A stretch of 64,000 nt of DNA from contig JAJYEE010000007.1 of the NCBI GenBank assembly GCA_021790335.1, positions 1,255 to 65,254 of the forward strand, given 5' to 3'. A model generated the notes under the pieces. That model searched no databases. It had not been told where the DNA came from and saw nothing but the letters and a program-made list of their open reading frames with translations. This DNA comes from Pseudomonadota bacterium. Lineage in GTDB: Bacteria; Pseudomonadota; Gammaproteobacteria; Acidiferrobacterales; UBA6901. A program made the position numbers and the translations under genes. Below, in pieces: positions 27,848 through 45,503 of this stretch (within the stretch, counting starts at the first letter, position 1; each line of letters starts with the position of its first letter).

Positions 27848-28014
27848 ACCGCGCTGCGCTTCGTCTTGCGGCGTCCGGCAGCACGCGGTTGCCGCACCAC
27901 TTCGATTCGGGCTGCCCCGGGCGCATTGCACGGCTGTCGCAGATCACTCTTGAATTTTCGACGCCAGCGTCTTAGCATCCGTTCCGCTGGCAGGAGTCTG
28001 CCTGACAGGACACA

Positions 28015-28033
28015 CTGGCCAATGTGTGGCCAG
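28015..28033. promoter_or_regulatory. Inverted repeat CTGGCCA-N5-TGGCCAG upstream of the hyf-like operon
   Basis: Read from the sequence. The perfect 7-bp arms lie about 97 nt upstream of the TTG start at 28130. It is a candidate operator only. Confidence 0.2.
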
Positions 28034-28129
28034 GCGGCGGAATCCACATCACGAAAAAGAACGAGGCAGTTACGGTTCATCCCTGTCCCCATTTGTGCAC
28101 TGCCCGGTCTGCGTTGAGGACGCGCTGAG

Positions 28130-30184
28130 TTGTCGCCCCTCATACTCGCGTACGTGGCGGTGGCAGGTGCACTGCTGTCGGGCGTAGTGGCCCTGGCCGC
28201 AGACCGGTTTCCCGCTGCACTGCGCGCAGGGTCGTTCAGCATCCTCGGTATTGCTGGCGTGACCGCGGTGGCTGCCGGCGGCTGGGCACTGGTGACGGGC
28301 ACCCGCACCACCGCGCAGCTTCCCTTCGGATTGCCCTGGCTCAACTGGCACCTGCGCCTCGACCCGCTCTCCGGTTTTTTCATGGCGATAGTCGGCATCG
28401 CCGTGATTGCGGTCAGCCTCTACGGCCCCGGCTACGTGCGCGAGTACGAGCGTGACAGGCATGCGCACCAGGCGGCGTCCGGCGAATCTCAGCCACGCAA
28501 TTCGCTGGCCACACTCGGGCTGTTCACCGGCATATTCGTGGCTGGCATGCTGGCGGTACTGCTGGCCGATGACGCCTTCGTGTTCATGATCGCGTGGGAA
28601 CTGATGTCGGTGTCGAGCTACCTGCTGGTCGCCTATCAGCATGACAATCCGGCCAACCGTCACGCCGCCTTCCTTTACCTGCTGCTCGCCGAAATCGGCG
28701 CACTGGTGATCCTGCTTGCCTTTGGCGTGCTCGCCGGATTCGGCGGCAATTTCACCTTCGATGCAATGCGCGCGGCGCACCTGTCGCCGGCCTGGGCATC
28801 GCTCGCGTTCGTGCTGGCGCTGTTCGGATTCGGCATGAAGGCCGGCATGGTGCCGCTGCACGTATGGCTGCCCGAGGCGCACCCGGCAGCTCCGTCCCAT
28901 ATCTCTGCGCTGATGAGCGGGGTAATGCTCAAGGTGGCGATCTACGGACTCATCCGCTTCGTATTCGATCTGCTCGGCCACCCCCAGTGGTCCTGGGGCC
29001 TGACGACCCTGGCGATCGGCACCGCCACGGCTGTGCTCGGGGTCCTGTATGCTGTCACACAGAATGACCTCAAGCGGTTGCTCGCCTATTCCTCCGTCGA
29101 GAACATCGGCATCATCCTCATGGGCCTTGGCCTGGGCATGATCTTCATCGGCACCGGTCATCCAGTCCTTGGCGCCGTAGCACTGCTCGCCGCCCTGTAT
29201 CACAGCCTGAATCACGCCGTATTCAAGACCCTGCTTTTCCTCGGCGCCGGGGCAGTGCTCTACCGCACCCACGAACGCGATCTCGACCACCTCGGCGGCC
29301 TGATCCGGCGCATGCCGGCCACTGCGTTTTTCATGCTCATCGGCTGTTTCAGCATCGCCGCCCTGCCCCCCTTTAACGGCTTCGTCTCGGAATGGCTGAC
29401 GCTGCAGGCGGCGCTGCAGGTACCGGCGCTCTCGAGCGGCGTGCTGCGCTCCATCATTCCGATCGCCGCAGCGCTGCTGGCGCTGACCACGGCGCTGGCG
29501 GCCGCCACGTTCGTCAAGGTCTACGGGGTAGCGTTCCTCGGACAGCCGCGCACGCGCCACGTGGCGCACGCTCGCGAAGTCGGCCTGGGAATGCGCGCCG
29601 GAATGGGGCTGCTGGCACTGCTGTGCGTGGTGCTGGGCGTAGTGCCCACGCTGGTAATCCGCCTGATCAGCCCGATCACGCGGGGTCTGCTGCACCTCAG
29701 CCCGGCGGGCGCCACGGTGCGCGGCTGGCTATGGCTGACGCCGGTCTCGCCGCACGTGGCCTCGTATTCCGCACCGCTGGTTGTCGCCGCCATGGCGTTC
29801 ACTTTCCTCGCCGGCTACCTGCTTCTGCATCGCCGCGCCCGCAGCGCGCGGCGCAGTGATCCCTGGGACTGCGGCTTCGGCGGACTGAACGCGCGCATGC
29901 AATACACTTCAACGGCGTTCGCACAACCGATCCGCCGGGTATTCGCACCGGTATGGCAGATCGACGAGCACGTCGACAAGGTCCAGAACTCTGCGACCCG
30001 CTACACCAGCATGCGCCACCAACTGCATGTCACGGACTGGTCATGGTCCGCTGTCTACCTGCCCATCGGCCGTCTGGTGCTCGCGGCAGCGCGGCGCGTC
30101 GGCCGCATACAGACTGGCAGCATACGCATCTACCTCGCCTATTCCTTCTTCACCCTGCTGCTGCTGCTATGGCTGATAACCTGA
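28130..30184 (+). CDS. Hydrogenase-4 subunit B-like antiporter-type membrane subunit (NuoL/HyfB family) of an Ehr-type complex
   Basis: 684 aa with a TTG start. It is collinear with E. coli HyfB as I recall it (FMIAWELMSVSSYLLV versus FIVLFEMMSLSSWFLV) and has many TM helices. Confidence 0.85.
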   Translation: MSPLILAYVAVAGALLSGVVALAADRFPAALRAGSFSILGIAGVTAVAAGGWALVTGTRTTAQLPFGLPWLNWHLRLDPLSGFFMAIVGIAVIAVSLYGPGYVREYERDRHAHQAASGESQPRNSLATLGLFTGIFVAGMLAVLLADDAFVFMIAWELMSVSSYLLVAYQHDNPANRHAAFLYLLLAEIGALVILLAFGVLAGFGGNFTFDAMRAAHLSPAWASLAFVLALFGFGMKAGMVPLHVWLPEAHPAAPSHISALMSGVMLKVAIYGLIRFVFDLLGHPQWSWGLTTLAIGTATAVLGVLYAVTQNDLKRLLAYSSVENIGIILMGLGLGMIFIGTGHPVLGAVALLAALYHSLNHAVFKTLLFLGAGAVLYRTHERDLDHLGGLIRRMPATAFFMLIGCFSIAALPPFNGFVSEWLTLQAALQVPALSSGVLRSIIPIAAALLALTTALAAATFVKVYGVAFLGQPRTRHVAHAREVGLGMRAGMGLLALLCVVLGVVPTLVIRLISPITRGLLHLSPAGATVRGWLWLTPVSPHVASYSAPLVVAAMAFTFLAGYLLLHRRARSARRSDPWDCGFGGLNARMQYTSTAFAQPIRRVFAPVWQIDEHVDKVQNSATRYTSMRHQLHVTDWSWSAVYLPIGRLVLAAARRVGRIQTGSIRIYLAYSFFTLLLLLWLIT

Positions 30185-31128
30185 ACGGCTGGCTGTGGGC
30201 CGCGCTTCAAACACTGCTGTTCATCGGCGGGGCGCCGCTGCTGGCCGGCTGGATCAAGCGCCTGAAATGCCATCTGCAGAACCGGGCCGCCCCCTCGATC
30301 CTCCAGCCGTACCGCGACCTCGCCAAGCTTTTCGCCAAGGATCTGGTGCTTGCGCACGATGCATCCTGGATCTTCCGGGTGACGCCGTACGTGGTCTTCG
30401 GCGCCATGCTGCTGGCGGCGGCGGTGGTGCCGCTGGTGGCGGTACCGCTGCCGACCGCTGCCATTGCCGATGTCATCGTGCTGGTAGGATTTTTCGCGCT
30501 GGCGCGCTTCTTCCAGGCACTGGCGGGCATGGACATAGGCACCGCCTTCGGCGGCATGGGTGCCTCGCGCGAAATGACCGTCGCATCACTCGCCGAGCCC
30601 GCGATGCTGATGGCGATATTCACGCTCACCATGACCGCTTCCACGACCAACCTCTCGGTGGCGATCCAATACATTCTGAACGCCGGCCTGGTACTGCGTC
30701 CGTCTTTTCTTTTCGCACTGCTCAGCCTGGCCATGGTGGCGGTCGCCGAGACCGGTCGCATCCCGATCGACAACCCGGCGACCCATCTCGAGCTCACCAT
30801 GCTTCATGAGGCGACAGTCCTGGAATACAGTGCCCGCCATCTGGCGCTGATAGACTGGGCCGGCATGGTCAAGCTCATGATCTATGCAGTCCTGATCAGC
30901 AACATCTTTCTGCCCTGGGGAATCGCCCGGCATCTCACGCTTCCCGGCCTGGCACTTGGCACTGTGGCGGTAGCCGCGAAGCTCGCGCTTCTGGCGGTGC
31001 TCCTGGCGCTGTGGGAAACCGTACTCGCCAAAATGCGCCTGTTCAGGGTTCCACAGTTTCTGGGGTTTGCGTTCGTGCTGAGCCTGCTGGGGATCCTGAC
31101 GCACGTGATCCTCGAGAGCGCATTGTGA
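30169..31128 (+). CDS. HyfC/HycD-like membrane subunit (NuoH family)
   Basis: The ATG at 30169 gives MADNLNGWLWAALQTLLFIGGAPLLAGWIKRLKCHLQNRAAPSILQPYRDL, a typical HycD/HyfC N-terminus. It overlaps the upstream gene by 16 nt. The track ORF from 29953 is over-extended. Confidence 0.85.
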   Translation: MADNLNGWLWAALQTLLFIGGAPLLAGWIKRLKCHLQNRAAPSILQPYRDLAKLFAKDLVLAHDASWIFRVTPYVVFGAMLLAAAVVPLVAVPLPTAAIADVIVLVGFFALARFFQALAGMDIGTAFGGMGASREMTVASLAEPAMLMAIFTLTMTASTTNLSVAIQYILNAGLVLRPSFLFALLSLAMVAVAETGRIPIDNPATHLELTMLHEATVLEYSARHLALIDWAGMVKLMIYAVLISNIFLPWGIARHLTLPGLALGTVAVAAKLALLAVLLALWETVLAKMRLFRVPQFLGFAFVLSLLGILTHVILESAL

Positions 31129-31179
31129 ATTCGATCGCCCCAGGGAACGGCCTGTCCATGATTAAGGAGCCGCAATGTC

Positions 31180-31857
31180 ATGCATCTGACTGATCTCAGT
31201 CTCTTCAGCCAGGGCATCCTGGTTTCGGCCGCACTGGTGCTGTTCACCTCGTTCGTGATGCTCGCCCAGGCACGCATCCAGCCACTCATATACGCTTTCG
31301 CCTGGCAGGGCGCACTGCTGTCGATCACCACGGCGCTGGTGGCGCTGGTATCGGGACATACACACCTTTATATATCGGCGCTGCTCACCTTCGGACTCAA
31401 GGCACTGCTGATCCCGTGGATGCTTTATCGCCTGACGAGGCGACTGCATATCCAGTATGACGTTGAAATCGTCGCCCACCCCTCGCTCACGCTCCTCGCC
31501 GGCACCGTGCTGGTGGTGTTCTGCTACTACGTAGCGCTGCCGATTGCCCAACTTTCGACGCTCGTGACCCGCAATACGATCGCTGTGAGCATGGCAACCG
31601 TATTGCTCGGCATGCTGCTCATGATCAGCCGCCGGACCGCAGTGGCACAGGTGATCGGATTCATGTCCATCGAGAATGGTCTGTTCTTCGCGGCCGTGGC
31701 CTCGACCTACGGCATGCCGATGATCGTCGAACTGGGTGTCGCTTTTGACGTCCTGGTGGCGGCCGTACTTTTCGGCGTGTTTTTCTTCCAGATCCGCACC
31801 AGCATCGACTCGCTCGATGTCGATCGTCTGAACCGCCTGTCGGAGCGAGGCGAATGA
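31180..31857 (+). CDS. HyfE-like membrane subunit (NuoK-related)
   Basis: 225 aa with an AAGGAG Shine-Dalgarno at 31164-31169. It resembles HyfE (GFMSIENGLFFAAVA versus GYCLMENGSHLVLAL; C-terminus LDVDRLNRLSE versus LDVNNLTALKG). Confidence 0.8.
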   Translation: MHLTDLSLFSQGILVSAALVLFTSFVMLAQARIQPLIYAFAWQGALLSITTALVALVSGHTHLYISALLTFGLKALLIPWMLYRLTRRLHIQYDVEIVAHPSLTLLAGTVLVVFCYYVALPIAQLSTLVTRNTIAVSMATVLLGMLLMISRRTAVAQVIGFMSIENGLFFAAVASTYGMPMIVELGVAFDVLVAAVLFGVFFFQIRTSIDSLDVDRLNRLSERGE

Positions 31858-33323
31858 GTCCGCTCTACCTGGTGCTGTGGCTGCCGCTCGCCGGCGGCCT
31901 GGTGCTCGCGCTGGTGCCGAACTACCGCATCGCGGGCTATATCAACGTGGCGATCGCAGCCTCGACCTTCGGCTCCTCGGTGTGGCTCGCCTGGAATGTG
32001 CTCGGCACCGGCCCGGAGCTGTCGCCGGGCAAGCTGTTCTACATCGACGCCTTCAACGTCTACCTCGTGGCGTTGACTGCGTTCGTCGGCTTGACTACGG
32101 CGATCTTCTCGCGGCCCTATATGCAGCACGAAGTCGAGCGCGGCCGGGTCGGTCCCCCGCGTATGCGGCTGTATCACTCGATGTACCAGGGCTTCCTGTT
32201 CGCAATGCTGCTGGCTCTCACGACCAACAACATGGGCGTACTGTGGGTGGCAATGGAAGCCGCTACCCTCACGACGGTGTTGCTGGTAAGCCTGTATCGC
32301 ACCCCGGAATCGGTGGAAGCGGCCTGGAAGTACTTCATCCTGTGCGGTGTCGGCATCGCCCAGGCGCTGTTCGGGACCGTACTTTTGTACTTCGCGGCAG
32401 AGCGGCGCCTCGGCGCCGAGCGTAACGATACGCTGCTGTGGAGCGTCCTGCACAACCACGCCGCCCAGCTCGATCCGGCCGTGCTGGCAATCGCCTTCGT
32501 GTTCCTGCTGGTCGGCTACGGAACCAAGGTCGGACTGGTGCCGCTGCACAACTGGCTGCCGGATGCACATTCCGAGGGTCCTACGCCCATGTCTGCGGTG
32601 CTGTCGGGCCTGCTGCTCAACGTCGCGCTCTATGCGCTCGTGCGCGTTAAGATGCTGGTGGACGGCTCGCTGCATACTGCGCTTGCCGGGCACCTGATGA
32701 TGGGATTCGGCCTGCTGTCTTTTCTGGTAGCGAGTCTGTTTCTGCACCGCCAGCACGACATAAAGCGCATGTACAGCTATTCCTCGATTGAACACATGGG
32801 TCTCATGACTTTCGCCTTCGGAATCGGCGGCGCACTCGCCACCTTTGCCGCCCTGCTGCACATGACCGTACACTCGCTTACAAAATCCTCCATCTTCGTT
32901 ACCGTCGGTCACGCCTCGCAGCTCGCCGGCACCCAGCGCATCGAGCACATACGCGGGTTGATCCGCACTCAGCCGCAGGTCGGCTGGGGCCTGCTGATCG
33001 GCACGCTTGCAATCGCCGGCTTTCCACCCTTCGGCGTGTTCATGAGCGAGTTTCTGGTGCTTAACGCGACCATGAAATCCTGGCCATGGCTGACCGTGCC
33101 GCTGCTGGTGGGTCTGGCCATCGCGTTCGCCGGCCTGTTCCGTCACCTGCAACCCATGGTTTACGGTACCCCGCCGCCCGGGCAGACCCGCGTCAGGGCC
33201 AACATGCTGCCGGTGGCGATCCATCTCGCCCTGGTACTGTGGCTCGGCCTGTCGATTCCGCTGTTCCTGTCACACTGGTTCGAACAGGCGACAAGTCTTA
33301 TCTCCGGGAGTCTGCCGCTGTGA
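31854..33323 (+). CDS. HyfF-like antiporter-type membrane subunit (NuoN/NuoM family)
   Basis: 489 aa with an ATGA overlap onto the hyfE-like stop. It carries the Mrp/Nuo antiporter motif (LVGYGTKVGLVPLHNWLPDAHSEGPTPMSAVLSG). Confidence 0.85.
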   Translation: MSPLYLVLWLPLAGGLVLALVPNYRIAGYINVAIAASTFGSSVWLAWNVLGTGPELSPGKLFYIDAFNVYLVALTAFVGLTTAIFSRPYMQHEVERGRVGPPRMRLYHSMYQGFLFAMLLALTTNNMGVLWVAMEAATLTTVLLVSLYRTPESVEAAWKYFILCGVGIAQALFGTVLLYFAAERRLGAERNDTLLWSVLHNHAAQLDPAVLAIAFVFLLVGYGTKVGLVPLHNWLPDAHSEGPTPMSAVLSGLLLNVALYALVRVKMLVDGSLHTALAGHLMMGFGLLSFLVASLFLHRQHDIKRMYSYSSIEHMGLMTFAFGIGGALATFAALLHMTVHSLTKSSIFVTVGHASQLAGTQRIEHIRGLIRTQPQVGWGLLIGTLAIAGFPPFGVFMSEFLVLNATMKSWPWLTVPLLVGLAIAFAGLFRHLQPMVYGTPPPGQTRVRANMLPVAIHLALVLWLGLSIPLFLSHWFEQATSLISGSLPL

Positions 33324-34909
33324 GGCGCTTCGACTGGCTCGATCCGTTCCTTGGCCGGCTCGTCGCCGAGGATGTGGCGGTGCGGGAGCTGCCGGCATGT
33401 TCCGGTCTCGCCCCGGCCCGCGTGATCGGGGTCGATGCCGATGATTGGGGGAAACTCGGACAGGCCGCCAGGCACTGGGGTTGCCGCTGGGTTGGCTGCT
33501 GGGGCGATGACATCGGGGAACATTTTCACCTTTATTCCTGCTTCGAAAAGGACCGCGGCTATCTGCTGGCACGCACCGCGGTGCGACGCCTCACACCCAT
33601 CCTGCCCTCCCACACACCGTATTTTGCGGCCGCCGACCGTGCCGAGCGTCATCTCCAGGATCTTTTCGGCGTGGCTTTCGGAGACCATCCCGACGCACGT
33701 CGCTGGATCCGCCATCAGGCCTGGAAGGACAGCGAATACCCGTTGCGCAAGGATTTTCCGCTCGCGGGCCACCCTCAGCCGCAGACTCCGGCAGACAACC
33801 ATTACAAATTCCTGTTCGCCCAGGGCAGCGGAGTCTGCGAGATCCCGGTCGGGCCGGTGCATGCATCGATCATCGAACCGGGACATTTCCGCTTCCAGGC
33901 GGTCGGCGAGACCGTGCTCCACCTCGAGCAGCGGCTCGGCTATGTCCACAAGGGTACGGAAAAGCTCGCCGAGGGGCGTGATGCCACGGGACTGGCGCGG
34001 CTTGCGGCACGCGTTTCGGGCGATTCCACCGTGGCGCACAGCTGGGCCGCGTGCATGGCGATGGAAAAGGCAGCGGCACTCGAGGTTCCGGCGCGCGCAC
34101 TTGCACTGCGGGCCATCCTGGCCGAGCGCGAACGCATCGCCAACCACCTCGGCGACATCGGCGCCATCTGCAGCGACGTGAGCTTCAGCTTCGCCTTCTA
34201 CCAGTTCAGCCGTCTGCGCGAGCTCTGGCAACGCGTCAACCTTGCAGCCTTCGGTCACCGGCTGCTCATGGACTGCATCGTACCCGGCGGGGTCGCCACA
34301 GACCTCACGACCGAAGCGATCGTCGCCCAGCACGAGCAGATCCGCACCTTTCGACCGCAGCTTGCCCGGTTGATGGACATCCTTAATACCAGTCCTACGG
34401 TCGAAGACCGCCTCATCGGGACCGGCAAACTCAGCCCCGAGCTGGCCGCCGAATTCGGTGCACTCGGCTACGTCGGCCGGGCAAGCGGCATCGACCTCGA
34501 TGTGCGCCGCGATTCACCCTATGCCCCGTACGACGCTTTAACGATACCTGTCCCGGTCCATCGCAGCGGCGACGTCGCAGCGCGCGTTCGGGTACGGGCT
34601 GAAGAAATCGGCAATTCGTTTGTGCTGATAGAAAATCTGCTCGACAAACTCGTGGCAGGACCGACGCACGCTCCCTGGGTGCCGCCTGCGGGCAATGTCA
34701 CGGGACTGGGTGTGGTCGAAGGATGGCGCGGCGAGACGCTCGCCTTCGTGCGCTTCGGCGACGATGGGCGCATCGCCCGCTATTACCCGCGGGATCCGAG
34801 CATGATCAACTGGCCGCTGCTTGAACTGCTCATCCACGAGAACATCGTCCCGGATTTTCCGGTATGCAACAAATCGGTGAACGGATCGTATTCCGGCAAT
34901 GACTTGTAG
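33320..34909 (+). CDS. HyfG/HycE-like 'large subunit' (fused NuoC-NuoD-like) lacking all four [NiFe] cysteine ligands
   Basis: The GTG at 33320 overlaps the hyfF-like stop (GTGA). The core aligns with HycE (PVHASIIEPGHFRFQAVGETVLHLEQRLGYVHKG). The N-terminal metal motif reads RVSGDSTVAH where HycE has RVCGICGFAH. The C-terminus reads NGSYSGNDL-stop where HycE has DPCYSCTDR. Confidence 0.85.
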   Translation: MRRFDWLDPFLGRLVAEDVAVRELPACSGLAPARVIGVDADDWGKLGQAARHWGCRWVGCWGDDIGEHFHLYSCFEKDRGYLLARTAVRRLTPILPSHTPYFAAADRAERHLQDLFGVAFGDHPDARRWIRHQAWKDSEYPLRKDFPLAGHPQPQTPADNHYKFLFAQGSGVCEIPVGPVHASIIEPGHFRFQAVGETVLHLEQRLGYVHKGTEKLAEGRDATGLARLAARVSGDSTVAHSWAACMAMEKAAALEVPARALALRAILAERERIANHLGDIGAICSDVSFSFAFYQFSRLRELWQRVNLAAFGHRLLMDCIVPGGVATDLTTEAIVAQHEQIRTFRPQLARLMDILNTSPTVEDRLIGTGKLSPELAAEFGALGYVGRASGIDLDVRRDSPYAPYDALTIPVPVHRSGDVAARVRVRAEEIGNSFVLIENLLDKLVAGPTHAPWVPPAGNVTGLGVVEGWRGETLAFVRFGDDGRIARYYPRDPSMINWPLLELLIHENIVPDFPVCNKSVNGSYSGNDL

Positions 34910-34990
34910 CACAAGCACCAGCGATGCGTACTGGCCGGCCATGGCGGCGGCCGCGCCGGCCGCTTGCACGGACCGCGAGGTTTCATATCC

Positions 34991-35530
34991 ATGCTGAGAA
35001 TTCTCGGAAAAGTACAGCGTATCGGCATCATTACCGAAAGCCTGTCACCGTGGGACGAACCGGCTCTGAGCCAGGTCGGAGAACAGCTGAAGGCGGCGGT
35101 CGGCAGGCGCTTCCGCGGGAGTCTCGCGATCCGCCAGGTAGACGCCGGCTCATGTAACGGCTGCGAACTCGAGATCCAGGCGCTCAACAATCCGTACTAC
35201 GGCATCGAGCGCTTCGGCGTGCATTTCGTCGCCAGCCCGCGCCACGCCGATATGCTGCTGGTGACCGGGCCGGTGTCGCGCCACATGGAGGAAGCCCTGC
35301 GCCGCGTGCACGCCGCCACCCCCGATCCCAAGCTCGTGATCGCCGTCGGCAACTGCGGCGCCACCGGCGGGGAATTCGGCGTGAGCTATGCCAGCGCCGG
35401 CGCGGTGTCGAATGTGGTTCCGGTGGACGCGGTCATTACCGGCTGCCCGCCCACGCCGCTCGATCTGATGCGCGGCATACTCGAGGCCATCGACGCCCGC
35501 AAGGCGGGCCGCGTGTCGGCCACACGCTGA
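34991..35530 (+). CDS. HyfI/HycG-like small subunit (NuoB family) retaining the [4Fe-4S] cysteines
   Basis: The ATG at 34991 gives MLRILGKV.... Cluster ligands are present in AGSCNGCELE, VGNCGATGG and GCPPTP. The track start at 34964 is a TTG. Confidence 0.85.
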   Translation: MLRILGKVQRIGIITESLSPWDEPALSQVGEQLKAAVGRRFRGSLAIRQVDAGSCNGCELEIQALNNPYYGIERFGVHFVASPRHADMLLVTGPVSRHMEEALRRVHAATPDPKLVIAVGNCGATGGEFGVSYASAGAVSNVVPVDAVITGCPPTPLDLMRGILEAIDARKAGRVSATR

Positions 35531-35548: not shown

Positions 35549-37132
35549 TCAGCGGCCATCCGCTGTCCGATCCCGCAACGCTGCCATGCCCTGCAGGTAG
35601 GCGCGTGCACGTTCAACGACTTCCTCCGGCAGCCCGCTATTGCGGGCAATGACAAGCCCCAGGGATCGCCCGCTCGTGCCGATCTGTAATTGATAAGTGG
35701 GCTTCAGCCGCTCCTCGTCAAACGCCATGGATGCATTGGTCAGTCCGCCGTGGTGCGCGGCGAACGCCTTGAGCGGCGCGAGATGGGTCGTCACGATGCC
35801 CTGGACGTGCCTTGCGGCGAGCTCATCGAGCACCGCCATCGCCAGCGCCGCACCCTCCTCCGGGTCGGTGCCGGTTCCAAGCTCATCGAGCAGCACCAGC
35901 GTACCGCTTCCGGCATCGCGCAGAATGCGCTTGAGGGCCTCCACGTGCCCGGCGAAAGTTGAAAGATGATGATAGAGACTCTGCGGGTCGCCGATGTCGA
36001 CGATTACCCGGCTGAAATTCCCGATGATGCAGTCACCCTCCGCCGGGATGTGCAAACCGCAGTGCGCCATGGTCACCAGCAGGCCGACGGTCTTGAGCAC
36101 CACCGTCTTGCCGCCGGTATTCGGACCAGTGACGATCAGCATGGGCTGGTGCGCATCGAGCGTCAGACTCAGCGGCACCGGGCGCGGCCCCTGGCCGCCG
36201 GTGAACTGCAGCAGCAGGGCCGGATGATAGGCGCGATCGAGCTGCAGCCGCGGCGTATCCACAAGCTGCGGCGCATGGGCGTTGAACTGAGCGCTCAGCT
36301 TTCCCGCTGCCAGGGCCAGATCGATCCAGGTCAAGGCATCGAGCATATGCCCGAGGGTGGCCAGATGGTCCCGCAGGAACCCGGTCAGCTCGCGCAACAG
36401 CGCCTGGGTTTCGACCTCCTGCTGCCCGACAAGCGCCTCGACGCGATTGTTGCGGGCGATCACTTCCATCGGTTCCACCAGCTGGTCGCCCTTGCCGCCG
36501 GCCGTGCCGCGGCGCACGCCGCGGATACGCTCGACCTGCCCTGCTGCGACCGCCAGCATCGCCCGTCCACCCTGCCAGACAATCCTGTCGGCGGACACCA
36601 CATCCCGGACGTCGGGGCGCTCGATACGCGCCGTGAGCGCGCCGACGACTTCCTCACGCAGCGTGCGGAGCTGTGCGGCGAGCTCGTCGAGTCGCGGGCT
36701 TGCGTCCTCGCGTACTCTTCCGGAAGGGAGAATGCTGCGATCCAGCCGCTGCACCAGCAGCGGCGGCGGCTCCAGATGTTCCTGCGGGCCAGGATATAGA
36801 TCGGGACGCACGGCGACGGCCTGCCGCAAAGCAGCAACCGCCGCGATCACCTGCTGCAGGTTGCGCAGCGCCGTTCCCGGCAGCGCCGCCCCCGGATTGG
36901 CAGCTTGCCGCAACGCCACACGTATGTCCGGTACCTCTCGGAGCGTCGGCGTTGCACCCGCATCCAGCACGCTGCGTGCCGCCGTGACTGCCGCCAGCAT
37001 GGCGCGCGCCAGGTTCAGGTCGGGAGCCGGCTCGATATGCCGTGCAGCTTCCGCGCCATAGGGCGTGGACGTCAGCTTCTCGAGCAGCCGCCGCACTGCG
37101 TCGAACTCAAGGGCCTTCAGGTCGCTCTGCAT
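35549..37132 (-). CDS. MutS2-family ATPase lacking the C-terminal Smr nuclease domain
   Basis: 527 aa with a MutS domain V ABC-type ATPase (Walker A TGPNTGGKTVVLKTVGL, STFAGHV, Walker B LVLLDELGTGTDP, TTHL). The protein ends shortly after the ATPase domain, with no coiled-coil or Smr region. Confidence 0.8.
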   Translation of the reverse strand: MQSDLKALEFDAVRRLLEKLTSTPYGAEAARHIEPAPDLNLARAMLAAVTAARSVLDAGATPTLREVPDIRVALRQAANPGAALPGTALRNLQQVIAAVAALRQAVAVRPDLYPGPQEHLEPPPLLVQRLDRSILPSGRVREDASPRLDELAAQLRTLREEVVGALTARIERPDVRDVVSADRIVWQGGRAMLAVAAGQVERIRGVRRGTAGGKGDQLVEPMEVIARNNRVEALVGQQEVETQALLRELTGFLRDHLATLGHMLDALTWIDLALAAGKLSAQFNAHAPQLVDTPRLQLDRAYHPALLLQFTGGQGPRPVPLSLTLDAHQPMLIVTGPNTGGKTVVLKTVGLLVTMAHCGLHIPAEGDCIIGNFSRVIVDIGDPQSLYHHLSTFAGHVEALKRILRDAGSGTLVLLDELGTGTDPEEGAALAMAVLDELAARHVQGIVTTHLAPLKAFAAHHGGLTNASMAFDEERLKPTYQLQIGTSGRSLGLVIARNSGLPEEVVERARAYLQGMAALRDRTADGR

Positions 37133-37183
37133 GATTCGGTCCCCACGGCGCCGGCGTGGACGCGGCCCACGGCGCCGGCGTCT

Positions 37184-37858
37184 TCAGCAGTCAGCGGCTT
37201 TTTTCTTTGCCACGTCGTCGCGCACATAAACCGGCAGCGCACGCTCGGCCGGCAGCGCCTCGCCGGCGGCAAAACCGGCCGCACCGAGAATGGCGACATC
37301 GCGCGCATGCGGGAAACGCTGCGCGCTCCAGCCGCTCACCTGGCCGGGCCAGCGCGCCAGAAGCTGCCCGGCGTACAGGTCCCAGCCACTGCCCGCGCCC
37401 CACCATCCGGCCCCCTGCGGAGCGGGCAGATCCGCAGGTGCGGCGACGAGCTCGGAACCCACCAGACGCGGATGCGACCGGGCGTCGCGGACGTAGACGC
37501 CCCAGTACACCTGGTTCATGCGCGCGTCCATTGCCGCCAGCACCCGGTCCTGCGCCTCGCCCTGGGCAAGCGCCGCCAGCGACGACACGGGAACAACCGG
37601 CAGGTCGGCGGCAAAGCCCAGCCCCTGCGCGACCGAAGCACCGATGCGCAAGCCGGTAAAGGACCCGGGGCCACGCCCAAATGCCAGGGCATCGAGGTCG
37701 GCAAGATGCAGGCCGGCGTCGCCCAGCAGCGCCCCGATCATGGGCAGAATGCGATGCGAGTGCTGTTCGCCGAGTTCGAAACGCTCGTGCACACGCCCGT
37801 CGTCCCAGAGGGCGACGGAACAGGCTGGCGTGGAGGTGTCCAGAGCGAGTAATTTCAA
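37184..37858 (-). CDS. tsaB: tRNA threonylcarbamoyladenosine biosynthesis protein TsaB (YeaZ)
   Basis: Homology starts at LKLLALDTSTPACSVALW (TTG at 37858), followed by GRGPGSFTGLRIG. The track ORF to 37939 adds an Arg/His-rich extension. The start codon is uncertain. Confidence 0.8.
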   Translation of the reverse strand: MKLLALDTSTPACSVALWDDGRVHERFELGEQHSHRILPMIGALLGDAGLHLADLDALAFGRGPGSFTGLRIGASVAQGLGFAADLPVVPVSSLAALAQGEAQDRVLAAMDARMNQVYWGVYVRDARSHPRLVGSELVAAPADLPAPQGAGWWGAGSGWDLYAGQLLARWPGQVSGWSAQRFPHARDVAILGAAGFAAGEALPAERALPVYVRDDVAKKKAADC

Positions 37859-37922
37859 GGGCGGCGGATCGCGATGGTGCGGGCCATGATAACACGCACG
37901 CCTGCCGCGGACAGCGCTGCCG

Positions 37923-38312
37923 TCACGTCCCGCGCACAAGCGCCCGGCGGTCGTTCAGATAGAGCCAGCCCTTGACCACACGGTAGATCGCCCACACGTA
38001 GGTGCCGAACAGCACGAAATAGCCGACGATGAAGACAAAGGTCGCCATGCCCAGCACCAGCAGCGCCATCGCGACCCAGAATGTACGTATCTGCCAGCGG
38101 AAGTGGGATTCGATCCAGGTACCGGCGGTATCGGGCAGCTTGACGTAATCGATGATCACCGCGACGACCAGACCGATGAGGAACAGCGGGAACACCACAC
38201 TCACCGCCTGCAATGCATAGACGACAGTCGCCAGTCTGATCAGGCGCTTCGATTCGCCGGCATCTCCGGCATCCTTCGGTGCGTTGTCTGTCACCATTGG
38301 CCCTCTGGACAT
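37923..38312 (-). CDS. Small integral membrane protein (three predicted TM helices; resembles the YALQA...GTW.ESHFRWQIRTFW...IYR.VKGW family of uncharacterised proteobacterial proteins)
   Basis: The ORF is open to 38387. ATG codons at 38312 and 38297 avoid overlap with the upstream OMP gene, and 38297 is preceded by AGAGGG. The conserved-looking core is IESHFRWQIRTFWVA...IYRVVKGWLYLNDRRAL. Confidence 0.6.
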   Translation of the reverse strand: MSRGPMVTDNAPKDAGDAGESKRLIRLATVVYALQAVSVVFPLFLIGLVVAVIIDYVKLPDTAGTWIESHFRWQIRTFWVAMALLVLGMATFVFIVGYFVLFGTYVWAIYRVVKGWLYLNDRRALVRGT

Positions 38313-38367
38313 TATCGCGTGAATGACCGCATCGGCCCTGCCCCCGGCGACCGCCACGGCACTGGTG

Positions 38368-39150
38368 TTAGCGGTATTCGCGGTCACGCGTCAGCAGATC
38401 GACACGCCTGCCGAAATAATACCTGATTCCGACCATGATGATATTGTTCGTGACGGTCTGGTGCCTCCTCGTGTAGCTGGCCCACAGACCCGAGGAATTG
38501 TCGAAGAACCTTGGCTGAAACTCGACCCCCAGGCTGTAGGTGTTCTTCAGGTCCTGTCCGTAGGTAGCCAGATCCACGCGCAGGATATTGGTGGGATACC
38601 AGCTGCCGGTCAGGCTGTCGCTGTTGAACCGGTCGAAGGCATTGAAGCGCGTCTGGTTCCAGGAAACCCCGATCGTGAACCGGGAAAAATAATACTGGGC
38701 CCCGGCAGAATAGTCCTTCATATCGAGCCTGGCGGTACCGCTGGCAAGGAATGTCGACTCGCAATGCGACATGGCCTGCCCCGCGCCGTAGCCCGCACTG
38801 ATCCGGCCGACGGACGGATCGCGGACGAACAGGCCGGCGCTCAGCCCCTTGTCGATCACTGTGCACTGCGGCAGGGAACTTGCCAGGGTCAGGCCGCTGC
38901 CGAGGGAAGCGAAGTTCGCTGCCATGCTGTAGTGGTCATAGAAGGCGGACACCGAAGCGCCCAGATAGCCGGCCAGCGGAAGGGTGATGCTGCCGTCGAC
39001 GGCATTGACACGGCTGTCGCTGCCGCCGACAGTGTTGATATCCCCGGATTCGTACCCGATCTGGTAATGGGTCGACTTCACGGCGGCCGGATCAGCAAGT
39101 GCGCTGCCGCCATATACCAGGAGCAGACCGGCAAGAAAGAGGCGTTTCAT
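38368..39150 (-). CDS. Putative outer-membrane beta-barrel protein
   Basis: The ATG at 39150 gives signal peptide MKRLFLAGLLLVYGGSALA/DP. It shows alternating beta-strand patterning and a terminal strand MVGIRYYFG plus a short tail. Only 11 nt separate it from the upstream lipoprotein gene. Confidence 0.6.
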   Translation of the reverse strand: MKRLFLAGLLLVYGGSALADPAAVKSTHYQIGYESGDINTVGGSDSRVNAVDGSITLPLAGYLGASVSAFYDHYSMAANFASLGSGLTLASSLPQCTVIDKGLSAGLFVRDPSVGRISAGYGAGQAMSHCESTFLASGTARLDMKDYSAGAQYYFSRFTIGVSWNQTRFNAFDRFNSDSLTGSWYPTNILRVDLATYGQDLKNTYSLGVEFQPRFFDNSSGLWASYTRRHQTVTNNIIMVGIRYYFGRRVDLLTRDREYR

Positions 39151-39161
39151 GGATTGTCTCG

Positions 39162-40874: not shown

Positions 40875-41313
40875 GATGAGGTACAACGCAATTCTACGTG
40901 GAGCGCAGCCCGAAAGTCCGCGGCTTCCGCGTTGTAAGAATCCGGCAGGCCGTTACGACCGTTGTCTGTCGAAACACCGCAGGGAAACACCGGACCCTGC
41001 GTCGACCGCCGCTGACTGCATTCCCCGTCTGCGCACCGCTCAAGGAGCACCGCAGGCCCGCCGCGGTTGACCGGCCACCCCTGACGCATCGGTCACAGGC
41101 CGCCAGGAATCTTGCGGAGCCGCATTGTACCTGACACGCACAACGCGCTGGAAGGGGAAGCACGACAATCGGATCTCGTGCCTGTGTCCTGTGGGGGGGC
41201 TGGGAAGCCGCCAGCGCCCCACCCGGCCCCGGGGCCGGATTTCCCGGGCGACTACCACCAATCGGCCGCATCCGTCACGATCGGCCGTCACGGCAACGGA
41301 CGATATGCTCCGC

Positions 41314-45100: not shown

Positions 45101-45503
45101 ACGAGCCCGGCGGCGACCGGCGGGCAGCCTGGAACCAGGGATGCTGATCGGAGCTGTGGTTGATCACAAGCTCGGTAATGATCCGAAGTCCGCGATCGTG
45201 CGCCGCGCGCACGAAGTTGCGGAAATCCCGTCGCGTGCCGTAGGACGGATGGACGTTGTGGTAGTCGGATATATCGTATCCATCATCGCGCAGCGGCGAC
45301 GGATAGAACGGCAACAGCCACAGCGTATTGACACCCAGGTCGCGGAGATAGTCTAGCTTGGACGTGAGGCCCGGAAAATCGCCGATGCCGTCGCCGTTGC
45401 TGTCGAAGAACGCCTTGACGTGCAGCTCGTAGATGACCGCATCCTTGTACCAAAGCGGGTCATCTGACGATACTGTCTCGGGCGCTGTGCGCTGCTGATC
45501 CAC
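42174..45503 (-). CDS. treS: Trehalose synthase (maltose alpha-D-glucosyltransferase) fused to maltokinase (TreS-Mak/Pep2)
   Basis: The GH13 TreS domain begins DPLWYKDAVIYELHVKAFFDSNGDGIGDFPG. A C-terminal kinase-like domain of about 450 aa carries IHGDFGLSRTL. I prefer the GTG at 45503 (GGAG 7 nt upstream). The track start at 45626 is also a GTG. Confidence 0.9.
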   Translation of the reverse strand: MDQQRTAPETVSSDDPLWYKDAVIYELHVKAFFDSNGDGIGDFPGLTSKLDYLRDLGVNTLWLLPFYPSPLRDDGYDISDYHNVHPSYGTRRDFRNFVRAAHDRGLRIITELVINHSSDQHPWFQAARRSPPGSSKRNFYVWSDTDEKFAGTPIIFSDTEKSNWAWDEVAQAYYWHRFFFHQPDLNHNNPHVVKAMTRVMRFWLDQEVDGLRLDAVPYLCVREGTNNENLPETHAVIRQMRGEIDAHYRDRMLLAEANQWPEDVRDYFGDGDECHMAYHFPLMPRMYMAIAQEDRHPIVEILKQTPDIPENCQWAVFLRNHDELTLATVTSRERDYMYQMYAADPQARLNLGIRRRLAPLMDNDIDRIKLMNSLLLSMPGSPIIYYGDEIGMGDNIYLGDRNGVRTPMQWSPDRNAGFSHADPQRLYLPPIMDPVYGYEAVNVEAQSRDPSSLLNWMRRTLGVRRNYQAFGRGRFQFLRPGNRKILAYLREHGDETILCVANLARSAQPVELDLAQYRGRVPVELMGRTAFPPVGGLPYLLTLPGHGFYWFRLVKDAEVPLWHEQRLAPEELPVVVLFDGLHSLLRDRVVPWRIRMAEKLRAQLETEVFPKFVAMQRWSGLKEHVPEHVQLVDSAEWGGDPAKWLVALLRIGPLAGPAETYFAPFALIWDSGDDARDRSLSTATLARVRQQASTGVLADAFSDESFCRAMVAAAGRGEELPCAAGTIRFIPAARFEEIKGTAALEELPVSVQGARGSHTALRFGSRLLLKAYRRLRVGLHPEVEFSRFLGEVAHFSHSVPLAGHVEYVGGDGVPATLALIQSFVENQGDGWSYTLSYLERFLEQERTRGLSGAGSAETHGAYHALMGVLGRRTAELHLALAAYASDPAFAAEPLRRRDPADWVADARAEAAAALDALERQRTALGDEASAAAQAILERRAELLQRIDSAAGSPPNGVRTRIHGDFGLSRTLLAQNDFFIIGFEGGAGRMRAEYRAKHSPLRDVASMLCSLSEARQEALLAATAGHPEDVRPLEPLLQAWQLGARRAFLQAYTETTRDTGLLGDQRGMPQLLDMFELEQVLYGVRAALDRQPERISVGLHGILELLGPPK

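Follow-up and report, generated by a model that had tools for sequence, protein, structure and literature searches.

Organization of the Operon

Within the 64,000-nucleotide stretch of DNA analyzed here (the window), positions 28130-35530 carry six tightly coupled plus-strand ORFs, all with intact reading frames (Table 1). Each predicted protein finds its best E. coli match in the Hyf subunit that bears its own letter, one to one, at identities of 40% (HyfB), 34% (HyfC), 26% (HyfE), 39% (HyfF), 33% (HyfG), and 38% (HyfI). An earlier note on this DNA had described a coupled hyfB/C/E/F/G/I-like operon, and both coordinates and sequence agree: the B and C genes overlap by 16 nt, ATGA is common to the E and F genes, and GTGA to the F and G genes. 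The I gene more likely starts at ATG 34991, giving 179 amino acids, than at TTG 34964. An ATG at 33086, upstream of the G gene, was ruled out as its start because homologues of 526-532 amino acids cover 100% of the 529 amino acid version.

Table 1. Predicted genes and upstream region of the operon
Feature	Coordinates	Strand	Remarks
Upstream intergenic region, 282 nt	27848..28129	+	GAGGA ribosome-binding site 9 nt before TTG start
hyfB/hyqB-like antiporter-like subunit, NuoL/HycC class, 684 aa	28130..30184	+	
hyfC/hyqC-like NuoH/HycD-type membrane subunit, 319 aa	30169..31128	+	ATG start; Pfam NADHdh
hyfE/hyqE-like small membrane subunit, 225 aa	31180..31857	+	
hyfF/hyqF-like antiporter-like subunit, NuoM/N class, 489 aa	31854..33323	+	
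hyfG/hyqG-like large subunit, NuoC::NuoD-type fusion, 529 aa	33320..34909	+	GTG start
hyfI/hyqI-like NuoB-type small subunit	TTG 34964 or ATG 34991 to 35530	+	Pfam Oxidored_q6

A promoter scan of the upstream region (27848..28129) yielded no sigma-70-like site, and Rfam gave no match there. FNR, Fur, ArcA, or convincing sigma-54 boxes were found neither in this region nor conserved across 47 related upstream regions, and no hyqR-like regulator gene is encoded at the window locus.

Membrane Arm and Small Subunit

Four parts make up the membrane arm: two antiporter modules (HyfB-like and HyfF-like), a connector resembling HyfE, and a subunit of the NuoH/HycD kind. The B protein matches the NCBIfam model "hydrogenase 4 subunit B" (866.7 bits against a cut-off of 667) and Pfam Proton_antipo_M. 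Its E157 (TM5), K237 (TM7), and K366 (TM12) are invariant in 47/47 relatives and K268 (TM8) in 46/47; in order along the protein, E157, K237, K268, and K366 align with HyfB E142, K221, K252, and K352. The F protein ("hydrogenase 4 subunit F", 779 bits, cut-off 543) can be aligned with MbhH and MbsH, and its E135 (TM5), K225 (TM7), N256 (TM8), and K344 (TM12) are invariant in all 55 relatives; the Asn at the TM8 position is also found in E. coli HyfF. HycD (7z0s_D) can be aligned with the entire C protein (E=1.3e-46, 163 bits). The E protein scores under the family cut-off of "hydrogenase 4 membrane subunit" (E=7.6e-23), and its gene occupies the same position in all related loci with sufficient flank.

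The cytoplasmic head consists of two proteins, the NuoC-NuoD-type large subunit and the NuoB-type subunit. The latter has C55, C58, C122, and C152 (in SCNGC, GNCG, and GCPP), which align with HyfI C44, C47, C111, and C141 and are invariant in 38 of 38 relatives; as the earlier note had it, all the cluster cysteines are kept, and the protein is predicted to bind one [4Fe-4S] cluster.

Loss of the NiFe Site in the Large Subunit

In a phmmer search of the PDB, residues 68-528 of the large subunit aligned with HycE (7z0s_E, E=3.8e-73), RVCGICGFAHS of HycE lying opposite RVSGDSTVAHS and DPCYSCTD opposite NGSYSGND; HyfG C243, C246, C517, and C520 correspond to S233, S236, S523, and G526. The earlier note had read RVSGDSTVAH and NGSYSGNDL in place of the cysteine motifs and had named alignment to HycE and HyfG as the check; the two alignments concur, with cysteine ligands absent at all four positions. 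It was also right that there is no protease-processed extension: the stop codon directly follows L529, where a matured large subunit would end, whereas HyfG runs 32 residues longer. The protein descends from group-4 NiFe hydrogenase large subunits, minus the NiFe ligands, and has no feature that calls for maturation or C-terminal cleavage. A conserved polar pocket remains, formed by E186, H189, R231, S233, G234, D235, S/T236, S523, Y524, G526, D528, and the C-terminal carboxylate; in the AlphaFold model, residues 126-237 and 490-529, i.e., the pocket region, have a pLDDT below 50. A sequencing artefact was rejected, as the identical 529 amino acid protein occurs on six contigs, from at least three samples, and the substituted motifs hardly vary among 120 homologues of 64-99% identity.

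Conservation and Distribution

The ligand positions read S, S/T, S, and G, with the same end residue, in 63/63 relatives (43-100% identity) from Gamma-, Beta-, and Alphaproteobacteria, Nitrospirota, and Acidobacteriota. The cysteine-less site is a motif in its own right, SGD… / …SYxGxD[L/R]-stop, and the former ligand motifs, two in number, are richer in invariant positions than the protein as a whole (9/19 versus 72/529, p=3e-4). Judged from these alignments, the site is conserved under purifying selection and not decayed; no cysteine of the large subunit is conserved in all family members. In a rough neighbor-joining tree of 119 representatives of clusters at 50% identity, the 95 sequences lacking the full four-cysteine set group in a single clade from which four-cysteine sequences are absent.

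A collection of species-representative genomes contained at least 600 matching stretches, and family members include methanotrophs, nitrite oxidizers, rhizobia, Cupriavidus, Thiobacillus, and Nitrospirota. The closest named relatives of the host (Acidiferrobacterales, Sulfurifustaceae, Sulfuricaulis) are sulfur oxidizers. Homologues are annotated as "Ni,Fe-hydrogenase III large subunit", "NADH-quinone oxidoreductase subunit C", or "nickel-dependent hydrogenase large subunit", bearing out the prediction that pipelines would mislabel the complex.

Genomic Neighborhood

Several parts that the earlier note had listed as missing from the window (a HyfH-type subunit, HyfA, HyfD, formate dehydrogenase, hyp genes, and hycI) also escaped directed searches: tblastn gave no match to HyfA, HyfH, or HyfJ, there is no third, HyfD-type subunit, no reading frame holds a CxxCxxCxxxCP ferredoxin motif, and Pfam scans of about 46 window ORFs revealed no hyp, hycI, or formate dehydrogenase families. 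A moaA gene lies 5 kb upstream among unrelated housekeeping genes, in a separate transcription unit.

The B-C-E-F-G-I order was kept in every related locus with sufficient flank, and in a survey of gene co-occurrence at 80 loci the most recurrent flanking gene family was present at no more than 5-7 of the 80. Formate dehydrogenase, hyp, and HycF-like genes were not recurrent neighbors in any of them, and ferredoxin motifs lay within 10 kb at just two. A small HTH regulator occurs near the module in about 20/46 loci, the window locus not being among them; apart from this regulator the module has no conserved partner gene and is self-contained. It is also found on plasmids and between transposases, and on one Rhizobium plasmid its neighbors are NfeD/slipin-type membrane-protein genes.

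Identity of the Complex and Prior Knowledge

The operon encodes a complete Hyq/Ehr-type complex maintained by selection; it is very probably a member of that family and not a NiFe enzyme. The type of complex is not new, being widespread and in print since 2009-2013: the same family has been named hyqBCEFGI in Azorhizobium caulinodans, "Ehr" in Nitrospira, and hyfBCEFGI in Cupriavidus and Acidithiobacillus. The reading as a minimal six-subunit Ehr-type complex matches the published Ehr concept in structure (PMC6349859, PMC10284858, PMC12342949), and that of a single Fe-S cluster with no visible electron-input module stands, no second Fe-S subunit having been found. The assertion that no physiological role had been established, however, overlooked the orthologous A. 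caulinodans hyqRBCEFGI (PMC2650096, PMC3357923, PMC2930871). New here are the conserved cysteine-less motif under apparent purifying selection, its confinement to a single clade in the rough tree, the absence of a universally conserved large-subunit cysteine, the invariant ion-translocation residues, and the lack of a conserved partner gene other than the HTH regulator.

Deletion of hyq in A. caulinodans slows diazotrophic growth, and expression of the operon is NifA-dependent (PMC2650096). By in vivo genetics, ~80% of microaerobic H2 evolution in a hupSL-deletion background is hyq-dependent, and hyq-linked H2 evolution persists in a nifK mutant (PMC3357923); "H2 recycling" remains when all 20 hup/hyp genes are deleted (PMC2930871). 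In Nitrospira moscoviensis, H2 gave no rise in Ehr expression (PMC12342949), and in A. ferrooxidans on H2 the subunits were undetected, the HydDB class of its large subunit being non-hydrogenase (PMC7735108). Genome papers have often proposed that this cluster type is connected with formate (PMC2864759, PMC7735108, bioRxiv 10.1101/144600), and in Geobacter the Ehr subunits reach higher abundance on formate (PMC7894505). The earlier claim that the complex cannot be an H2-evolving hydrogenase is reasonable from sequence but is not settled fact, because the genetics-only in vivo claims for hyq conflict with it.

Proposed Function and Alternatives

Our best reading, to which we give a probability of about 55%, is an energy-coupled redox module that carries one Fe-S cluster, is not a NiFe hydrogenase, and has putative partners. 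Energy-coupled redox chemistry as such is likely; the specific pairing of quinone with ferredoxin is tentative at best. Where the large, small, and NuoH-like subunits meet, the cluster and pocket would undergo a redox or protonation change that is relayed through the conserved Glu/Lys chain of the membrane arm and linked, in either direction, to the movement of H+ (or Na+), as happens in complex I, MBH, and formate hydrogenlyase. One partner may be the membrane quinone pool, chosen because respiration in the host lineages uses quinones and the complex lacks a second Fe-S subunit; quinone reactivity is only putative, however, because the complex-I quinone ligands are absent from the large subunit (NuoD Tyr87 and His38 are Gly234 and Ile185). 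The other might be a soluble low-potential carrier (ferredoxin or flavodoxin) on the face covered by HycF/NuoI in relatives, no gene for either being linked. In chemolithotrophs such as the host, the useful direction would run from quinol to the low-potential carrier, powered by the proton-motive force. The hyq diazotrophy phenotype and NifA dependence, the hup/hyp-independent activity, the missing H2 response, and the HydDB non-hydrogenase call count in favor of a low-potential, non-NiFe role, whereas the H2 evolved by the nifK mutant (PMC3357923) is accommodated by a ferredoxin model only if a second H2-forming catalyst is invoked.

That same H2, together with the ~80% lost on hyq deletion (PMC3357923), is an argument for a true "endo-hydrogenase", a proton-pumping reversible H2:quinone oxidoreductase with an H2 site other than cysteine-ligated NiFe, which we consider unlikely. 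A. brasilense Sp7, a hyq carrier according to Sprecher et al., has the same family and gene order, with a large subunit 47% identical to that of the window (other subunits 46-57%) that reads ARISGDATVAH and CNKSFNCSYAGHDL-stop; the published HyqG length of 504 and its Cys258/491/497 match alphaproteobacterial members exactly, and the hydrogenase "EPGH" motif still has its E186 and H189. The thiolate ligands, however, are all gone, and the "conserved" HyqG cysteines vary (C284 in 41/63, C516 in 42/63, and Cys in 16/63 at position 522, which is Gly in the window protein). The attributed activity is hyp-independent (PMC2930871), with support from in vivo genetics only, and neither N. moscoviensis (PMC12342949) nor A. 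ferrooxidans (PMC7735108) responds to H2. The family is also common in mostly non-diazotrophic lineages (Nitrospirota, Thiobacillus, Cupriavidus), which contradicts the argument that it is co-selected with N2 fixation.

The wholly intact antiporter-like subunits, the lack of an electron-input module, linked redox partner, or quinone-ligand residues, and a self-sufficiency and mobility like that of mrp operons would also suit a redox-independent cation/proton transporter of the Mrp kind, with the head as a structural or regulatory cap and the cluster structural or a redox sensor; the NfeD/slipin-type neighbors on the Rhizobium plasmid point the same way. It is nonetheless improbable, as cluster cysteines and pocket residues invariant across phyla are hard to square with a passive cap, and the hyq phenotypes are limited to redox-stressed, diazotrophic, or microaerobic conditions (PMC2650096, PMC3357923).

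Direct reduction of another small substrate, e.g., a sulfur compound, at or beside the [4Fe-4S] cluster would suit a sulfur-oxidizer-like host, and has reportedly been proposed, with polysulfide, for the Pyrococcus MBS complex, a precedent for a hydrogenase-derived complex functioning without NiFe. MbsL and MbsH are detectable as relatives, but the MbsL similarity is low (81 bits versus 251 for HycE), an electron donor is still missing, and methanotrophs, nitrite oxidizers, rhizobia, and Cupriavidus have no sulfur metabolism in common, making this quite unlikely.

The proposed formate link, the greater abundance of Geobacter Ehr on formate (PMC7894505), and the nearby moaA could suggest part of a formate hydrogenlyase-type system, completed by an unlinked cysteine-bearing paralogue, HycF-like subunit, formate dehydrogenase, and hyp/hycI. 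This is very improbable: all 63 family members lack the ligands, a substitute large subunit is unnecessary because the operon encodes its own complete, conserved one, the supposed partners do not recur at the 80 loci, and moaA is separately transcribed among housekeeping genes. A decaying, functionless remnant, which the loss of every catalytic ligand and several Hyf subunits might suggest, is refuted by six intact, translationally coupled reading frames, strong motif conservation across phyla, a clade of at least 95 clusters at 50% identity, and the at least 600 genomic matches.

Comparison with Known Systems

A. caulinodans Hyq (hyqRBCEFGI, AZC_4361-4355) has the same six structural genes in the same order and likewise lacks HyfA, D, H, and J. 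Its HyqG is also a NuoC::NuoD fusion with both CxxC motifs gone and the end ...SYSGxDL, and in its small subunit Cys55, Cys58, and Cys152 match the window positions, with a fourth cysteine besides. This likeness was drawn from published descriptions, bridged by the loci of A. brasilense Sp7, Rhizobium, Bradyrhizobium, and Mesorhizobium. Unlike Hyq, the window operon is not preceded by a hyqR-type HTH regulator gene and shows neither a NifA nor a sigma-54 signature; Gly replaces one of the three HyqG cysteines called "conserved", and the host is a gammaproteobacterium resembling sulfur oxidizers rather than an alphaproteobacterial diazotroph.

Ehr (Ech- or energy-converting-hydrogenase-related) complexes (Coppi 2005 and Marreiros 2013, cited through PMC7894505 and PMC4758237; for Nitrospira, PMC10284858 and PMC12342949) share the kinship to group-4 hydrogenases and complex I, the absence of NiFe cysteines, and the antiporter-like subunits, and their function was stated as unknown as late as 2025. 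Nitrospirota loci (L023-L026, L028, L035) are members of the window operon's family (47-49% identity); the window gene order is seen in L025, L026, and L035, whose contigs are long enough, and L024 is aberrant. Note that Ehr is an umbrella term including other compositions (Geobacter GSU0739-45, Mbx), the window complex being one six-gene, single-cluster subfamily.

E. coli hydrogenase-4 / Hyc (7Z0S) is the closest solved structure and characterized relative (HycE 251 bits, HycD 163 bits), and each coupling residue and each cluster cysteine has its one counterpart there. In comparison, the window proteins lack the four HyfG cysteines and the 32-residue extension, and the operon lacks HyfA, HyfD, HyfH, HyfJ, HyfR, FocB, a formate dehydrogenase partner, and maturation genes. 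Cysteine-bearing group-4 large subunits that lack a C-terminal extension (e.g., P0265, P0268, P0269; 39-42% identical), probably the "group 4f" neighbors of PMC10284858, keep all four ligands and fall outside the cysteine-less clade in the neighbor-joining tree. They end in ...CY[SA]CxDR-stop at the same position, so loss of the extension predates loss of the cysteines.

Relative to complex I and Pyrococcus MBH, the operon is without a NuoI/MbhN-type subunit and NuoA, E, F, and G, and its small-subunit cluster motif is the hydrogenase-type CxxC rather than the tandem CC of complex I. The modular architecture, the cluster at the N2 position, and antiporter-like modules with a Glu/Lys chain are nevertheless shared by the window operon with complex I (NuoB, CD, H, L, M) and with MBH/MBS.

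The operon and its subunits

Six genes, labeled B, C, E, F, G, and I by their resemblance to hyfBCEFGI, form the operon; their positions and domain assignments are collected in the table below. When the six proteins were compared with the E. coli K-12 hyf operon, each found the Hyf subunit of the same letter as its top match, at 26-40% identity, and the C product aligned over its full length with HycD (E=1.3e-46). The earlier note had described six tightly coupled genes with one overlap and two shared start/stop tetranucleotides, and the coordinates bear this out, as do the searches for the parts that it reported missing: tblastn gave no match to HyfA, HyfH, or HyfJ anywhere in the 64-kb window, no third HyfD-type subunit is present there, and Pfam and NCBIfam scans of ~46 window ORFs revealed no hyp, hycI, formate dehydrogenase, or ferredoxin-type subunit gene. 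The CxxCxxCxxxCP ferredoxin motif is absent from every reading frame of the window, and neither NuoI, the NuoEFG input module, nor the NuoA/J/K/N subunits were found in the operon or the rest of the window. The six-subunit architecture is homologous to the core of formate hydrogenlyase, MBH, and complex I.

Features of the window and of related loci (L-handles are genome loci fetched from relatives; positions are those of the window or of the locus)
Feature	Position	Strand	Description
Operon	28130-35530	+	six genes
B	ends 30184	+	Proton_antipo_M; NCBIfam 'hydrogenase 4 subunit B', 866.7 bits, above cut-off
C	ATG at 30169	+	NuoH-type (Pfam/NCBIfam); 16-nt overlap with B
E		+	HyfE-like (Pfam/NCBIfam)
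E/F junction	31854-31857	+	shared ATGA
F		+	Proton_antipo_M; NCBIfam 'hydrogenase 4 subunit F', 779 bits, above cut-off
F/G junction	33320-33323	+	shared GTGA
G	33320-34909	+	large subunit; Complex1_30kDa and Complex1_49kDa (Pfam/NCBIfam)
I		+	NuoB-type (Pfam/NCBIfam)
Sensor protein	7918-10593	-	891 aa; protoglobin sensor, GGDEF, EAL, C-terminal CZB zinc-binding domain
MutS2-like gene and three ORFs	35549-40886	-	truncated MutS2-like protein, 527 aa, with 18 nt between its stop codon and that of the operon; ORFs of 154, 267, and 574 aa
GC-rich patch	36-38 kb		GC 0.69
Alpha-amylase family	42174-50535	-	three adjacent genes (1150, 1143, and 627 aa); CBM48 and DUF3459 in the 627-aa product
Second signaling protein	58902-61880		dCache, GAF, GGDEF, EAL
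HTH gene, L085	6595-6915		XRE-type
HTH gene, L068	4613-4855		XRE-type
HTH gene, L073	4552-4791		XRE-type
HTH gene, L008	1506-1760		XRE-type
HTH gene, L012	4592-4840		XRE-type
HTH gene, L021	4600-4863		XRE-type
SulP gene, L009	2775-4460		upstream of hyfB
SulP gene, L011	2767-4422		upstream of hyfB
SulP gene, L020	2902-4500		upstream of hyfB
Transposase genes, L086	3052-5439; 14474-14797		flank the module
Extra ORF, L086	11470-11781		103 aa, between F and G; no Pfam match
Module, L024	6069-11377		aberrant; B and C missing

The former NiFe site

Residues 68-528 of the 529-aa large subunit align by phmmer against the PDB with the HycE chain of formate hydrogenlyase (7z0s_E, E=3.8e-73), placing RVSGDSTVAHS opposite RVCGICGFAHS and NGSYSGND opposite DPCYSCTD; at the level of sequence, this alignment is unambiguous. 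The four HyfG ligands C243, C246, C517, and C520 map to S233, S236, S523, and G526, respectively, and the protein stops after L529, opposite HyfG R523, where HyfG runs 32 residues further. The loss of both cysteine motifs, with a stop directly after the second, had been claimed in the earlier note and holds opposite both HycE and HyfG. Sequencing error is excluded because the same 529-aa protein, identical throughout, occurs on six contigs, of which the three shown represent three samples.

Relative to a group 4 [NiFe]-hydrogenase, the operon has the NuoB-type four-cysteine small subunit and the HyfB/C/E/F-type membrane subunits, and lacks the four-cysteine L1 (RxCGxCxxxH) and L2 (DPCxxCxxR/H) motifs, the C-terminal extension cleaved by a HycI-type protease, and the HycF/HyfH-type 2x[4Fe-4S] subunit. 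The missing tail alone does not decide group-4 membership, since some cysteine-bearing relatives are also tail-less. We infer that the complex is not a NiFe hydrogenase. In the 2026 PDB, the best match is only ~33% identical, so that no member of the cysteine-less family is among its solved structures; an AlphaFold2 model from a 20-sequence alignment had a mean pLDDT of 60.9, falling below 50 exactly at residues 126-237 and 490-529.

Conservation of the cysteine-less site

Among 120 homologues sharing 64-99% identity, RVSGD[ST]TVAH and NGSYSG[HNS]DL-stop hardly vary. A set of 63 relatives (43-100% identity), taken from 80 genome loci and spanning Gamma-, Beta-, and Alphaproteobacteria, Nitrospirota, and Acidobacteriota, carries S, S/T, S, and G at the ligand positions in 61 cases. 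E186, H189, G234, Y524, G526, and D528 are invariant in this set, R231, S233, D235, and S523 are each present in 62 members, and all 63 end at the same residue. Invariant positions are overrepresented in the two former ligand motifs (9/19 vs 72/529, hypergeometric p=3e-4). None of the large-subunit cysteines is shared by all 63: C284 is found in 41 and C516 in 42, and position 522, Gly in the window protein, is Cys in 16. Judged by these alignments, the site is conserved rather than decayed. A vectorial carbonic anhydrase of the CupA/DAB kind was considered and rejected, as the pocket lacks a conserved set of His/Cys zinc ligands.

The residues associated with ion translocation are likewise retained. 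In the HyfB-like subunit, all 47 relatives share E157 (TM5), K237 (TM7), and K366 (TM12), and 46 of them have K268 (TM8); in the HyfF-like subunit, E135, K225, N256, and K344 are invariant in 55 relatives, and the TM8 Asn is ancestral because E. coli HyfF also has Asn there. Small-subunit C55, C58, C122, and C152 map to HyfI C44, C47, C111, and C141 and are invariant in 38 relatives, in keeping with the earlier note's reading of an intact [4Fe-4S] site. The complex has one cluster ligand set and an intact Glu/Lys chain, and a pocket of conserved polar residues takes the place of the NiFe site.

Size, origin, and spread of the family

When 1.84 billion cluster representatives were searched exhaustively with HMMER, 966 clusters (50% identity) matched the large subunit at E≤1e-30, a count that includes cysteine-bearing relatives. 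About 100 of the best 150 of these are cysteine-less, with the hallmark xSGD[S/T/N/E/H]… and …SY[S/A]GxD[L/R]-stop; 23 of the 150 have all four cysteines, and the closest of these, 39-42% identical, also lack the C-terminal tail. A few of the 150 are intermediates: the cluster representatives P0254, P0258, P0377, and P0379 have CSAG at the ligand positions, P0263 has CSSG, P0287 CCCD, and P0304 CCCA, so that one or three of the four cysteines are kept.

In a rough neighbor-joining tree of 119 full-length representatives, with E. coli HyfG as the root and without support values, the 95 sequences lacking the full ligand set group in a single clade that contains no four-cysteine sequence; this fits one ancient ligand loss followed by a large radiation. 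The CCCD and CCCA sequences fall among or adjoin the cysteine-bearing ones, and the CSAG and CSSG sequences lie within the cysteine-less clade; these patterns may be steps in, or reversals of, site loss. The published placement of Nitrospira Ehr complexes (Ehr for energy-converting-hydrogenase-related) beside group 4f (PMC10284858) agrees with the tree.

Scanning 185,579 species genomes with the family peptides IEPGHFRF and CNKSVNGS gave at least 600 matching stretches in this collection of species representatives, and 80 loci were fetched. Hosts include nitrifiers, sulfur and iron oxidizers, methanotrophs, rhizobia, and Cupriavidus, and the module is also carried on plasmids or chromids of Rhizobium, Azospirillum, Burkholderia, and Cupriavidus. 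The inference of the A. caulinodans Hyq authors that its carriers are microaerophilic diazotrophs alone does not hold in this wider sampling. The closest named homologues belong to Acidiferrobacterales (86%), Sulfuricaulis, and Sulfurifustaceae, and the window probably comes from an uncultured, sulfur-oxidizer-type gammaproteobacterium. With an alphaproteobacterial member as query, the only matches listed were relatives from metagenomes and from Pseudolabrys.

Genes around the module

The order B-C-E-F-G-I is kept in every one of the 80 loci with enough flank. The earlier note had proposed a survey of co-occurring genes; run by clustering all ORFs within ±10 kb, where several apparent neighbor clusters were antisense ORF artefacts, it placed no non-operon family in more than 5-7 of the 80 loci, and a Pfam census of 76 immediate neighbors was heterogeneous. 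Neither approach yielded a recurrent partner gene, an HTH regulator apart, and a ferredoxin motif lay within 10 kb in only 2/80 loci. This sole recurrent neighbor is a ~100-aa XRE-type protein (Pfam HTH_31/HTH_3) that probably corresponds to the hyqR of A. caulinodans. Its gene lies directly upstream of B in ~20 of 46 loci, from alpha- as well as gammaproteobacteria, and in Rhizobium the end of this gene overlaps the start of hyfB. The Rhizobium protein has no match in the window.

Five loci (the three in the table and two others), from Methylococcales in those traced by clustering, have a SulP-family transporter gene next to hyfB, upstream and on the same strand; a DUF2490 protein follows the operon in four loci, and a beta-carbonic anhydrase is one further neighbor. 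The SulP and DUF2490 cases are probably lineage synteny, or all three may be a weak hint of an anion or bicarbonate link. On the 148-kb plasmid 2 of Candidatus Methylocalor cossyra (L086), the six-gene module stands between transposase genes, a context which suggests that it moves horizontally as a unit. In Nitrospirae bacterium MYbinv3 (L024), the 1.8-kb gap between F and G was considered as an extra subunit and rejected, as it holds an unrelated F5/8-type-C (discoidin) domain gene; this locus may be a decayed copy or a mis-assembly.

Regulation and the rest of the window

No Rfam family is present in the window, and a window scan found no sigma-70-like promoter. Upstream of B, there is no FNR, Fur, ArcA, NsrR-like, or convincing sigma-54 site, nor any sigma-54 box with ≤1 mismatch, and none of these regulator sites is conserved across 47 related upstream regions. 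The scanned window ORFs include housekeeping and signaling genes (among them gyrA, pheA, serC, ffh, moaA, rsd/algQ, rml genes, and genes for GGDEF/EAL proteins); the operon has no relation to its immediate upstream neighbors (ffh, CcsA-like, and CNNM/CorC genes) or to the MutS2-like gene that converges on it from downstream. The truncated MutS2-like protein matches model positions 3-513 of 790 and thus lacks the Smr end; upstream of its gene on the same strand are three successive ORFs (154, 267, and 574 aa) with no Pfam/NCBIfam match. In the 891-aa protein, a globin-coupled c-di-GMP enzyme, the additional zinc sensor is unusual. The alpha-amylase-family genes look like a trehalose or alpha-glucan cluster; two of these ORFs (45743-49174 and 48652-50535) overlap by ~520 nt, so that one start or reading frame is uncertain.

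Published relatives

Clusters of the same type have been published under the name hyfBCEFGI for C. metallidurans and C. necator (PMC2864759) and for Nitrospira (bioRxiv 10.1101/144600). For A. ferrooxidans, HydDB put the large subunit among the non-hydrogenases, and none of the subunits was detected during growth on H2 (PMC7735108). About half of the Nitrospirales genomes carry Ehr; it was still labeled 'function unknown' in 2025, and its expression in N. moscoviensis did not rise with H2 (PMC12342949, PMC10284858). Literature searched by locus tag for C. necator H16_A2196-2201 and B. japonicum blr6338-6343 consisted of genome and Hyq papers only.

We consider the 'endo-hydrogenase' hyqRBCEFGI of A. 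caulinodans to belong to the same family, on grounds of sequence bridged through A. brasilense Sp7 and matching residue numbers. A. brasilense Sp7, named as a hyq carrier (PMC3357923), shares the six-gene order and shows ARISGDATVAH and CNKSFNCSYAGHDL-stop as its motifs; the published HyqG length of 504 and Cys 258/491/497 fit alphaproteobacterial members ending …C-NKSFN-C-SYSGHDL, and the published HyqI cysteines 55, 58, and 152 carry the same numbers as those of the window small subunit (PMC3357923). Deletion of hyq slowed diazotrophic growth, and expression was NifA-dependent (PMC2650096); ~80% of microaerobic H2 evolution was lost, even in a nifK background (PMC3357923), and 'H2 recycling' persisted after deletion of all 20 hup/hyp genes (PMC2930871). 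The H2:quinone oxidoreductase claim comes from in vivo genetics only (PMC3357923), and its authors noted that HyqG is without both CxxC motifs and called a NiFe site 'uncertain, if not unlikely'. This H2:quinone claim, the only experimental one, is at odds with the family's sequence.

What the complex may do

Events at the cluster and in the pocket would be coupled to ion translocation. Our preferred partners, at a probability of about 0.3, would be the quinone pool and a soluble low-potential carrier docking at the place of HycF/NuoI; in hosts living on high-potential donors, the complex would then run in the proton-motive-force-consuming direction. The NifA dependence, the phenotype under diazotrophy, and the occurrence in many chemolithotrophs agree with this pairing, which explains the H2 data only if another catalyst releases H2.

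A bolder and doubtful proposal is that the cysteine-free pocket (S-G-D … S-Y-x-G-x-D-L-COO-) by the single [4Fe-4S] cluster is a catalytic site of an undescribed kind. It could be a metal-thiolate-free site interconverting H2 and H+ with quinone, as Hyq genetics suggest, or a proton-motive-force-driven quinol:ferredoxin/flavodoxin oxidoreductase site. The latter, if true, would supply aerobes and chemolithotrophs with low-potential electrons by a third route beside Rnf and FixABCX; either would be a new energy-converting reaction in aerobic respiratory chains.

A true H2:quinone enzyme with an unconventional site would take the Hyq deletion phenotypes at face value; given a large subunit stripped of its ligands, we think it improbable. 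We give the same low standing to an Mrp-like transporter with a non-catalytic head, which would use the intact Glu/Lys chain and leave the invariant cluster cysteines and pocket without catalytic work. Somewhat less likely again is a reductase of another small substrate. A formate hydrogenlyase completed in trans would draw on the homologous core and need every missing part from elsewhere, and is very unlikely; a relic, set beside motifs so well conserved, hardly deserves consideration.

The window instance introduces no new principle; the comparison yields D235, S233, Y524, D528, and the cluster cysteines as targets. The finding is real and accurately described, in a known and often-noticed family that is a somewhat neglected problem, and this uncultured instance does not render the family more testable than existing model organisms already do. 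Routine annotation of members as hydrogenase or complex I subunits inflates genome-based claims of H2 metabolism.

Comparison with known systems

Respiratory complex I differs at the quinone site: the quinone-headgroup ligands of NuoD, Tyr87 and His38 (T. thermophilus numbering), are not kept in the window large subunit, where alignment with Aquifex NuoCD2 (7q5y_B) puts Gly234 opposite the Tyr and Ile185 opposite the His. The operon agrees with the Ehr definition, namely NuoB/NuoD/NuoH/NuoL/M/N-like subunits with the NiFe-binding residues absent from the large subunit (PMC6349859, PMC10284858). The earlier note had recognized and accurately described this fit, and overlooked Hyq. The window differs from Hyq in having neither hyqR as first gene nor a NifA/sigma-54 signature, and in carrying C284, C516, and Gly522 where HyqG has three 'completely conserved' cysteines (Cys258, Cys491, and Cys497). 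That conservation does not survive wider sampling, and the idea of the three as a metal site was dropped because they are not conserved across the 63 relatives. The window operon shares with Hyq the B-C-E-F-G-I order, the NuoC::NuoD fusion without CxxC, and the four-cysteine small subunit.
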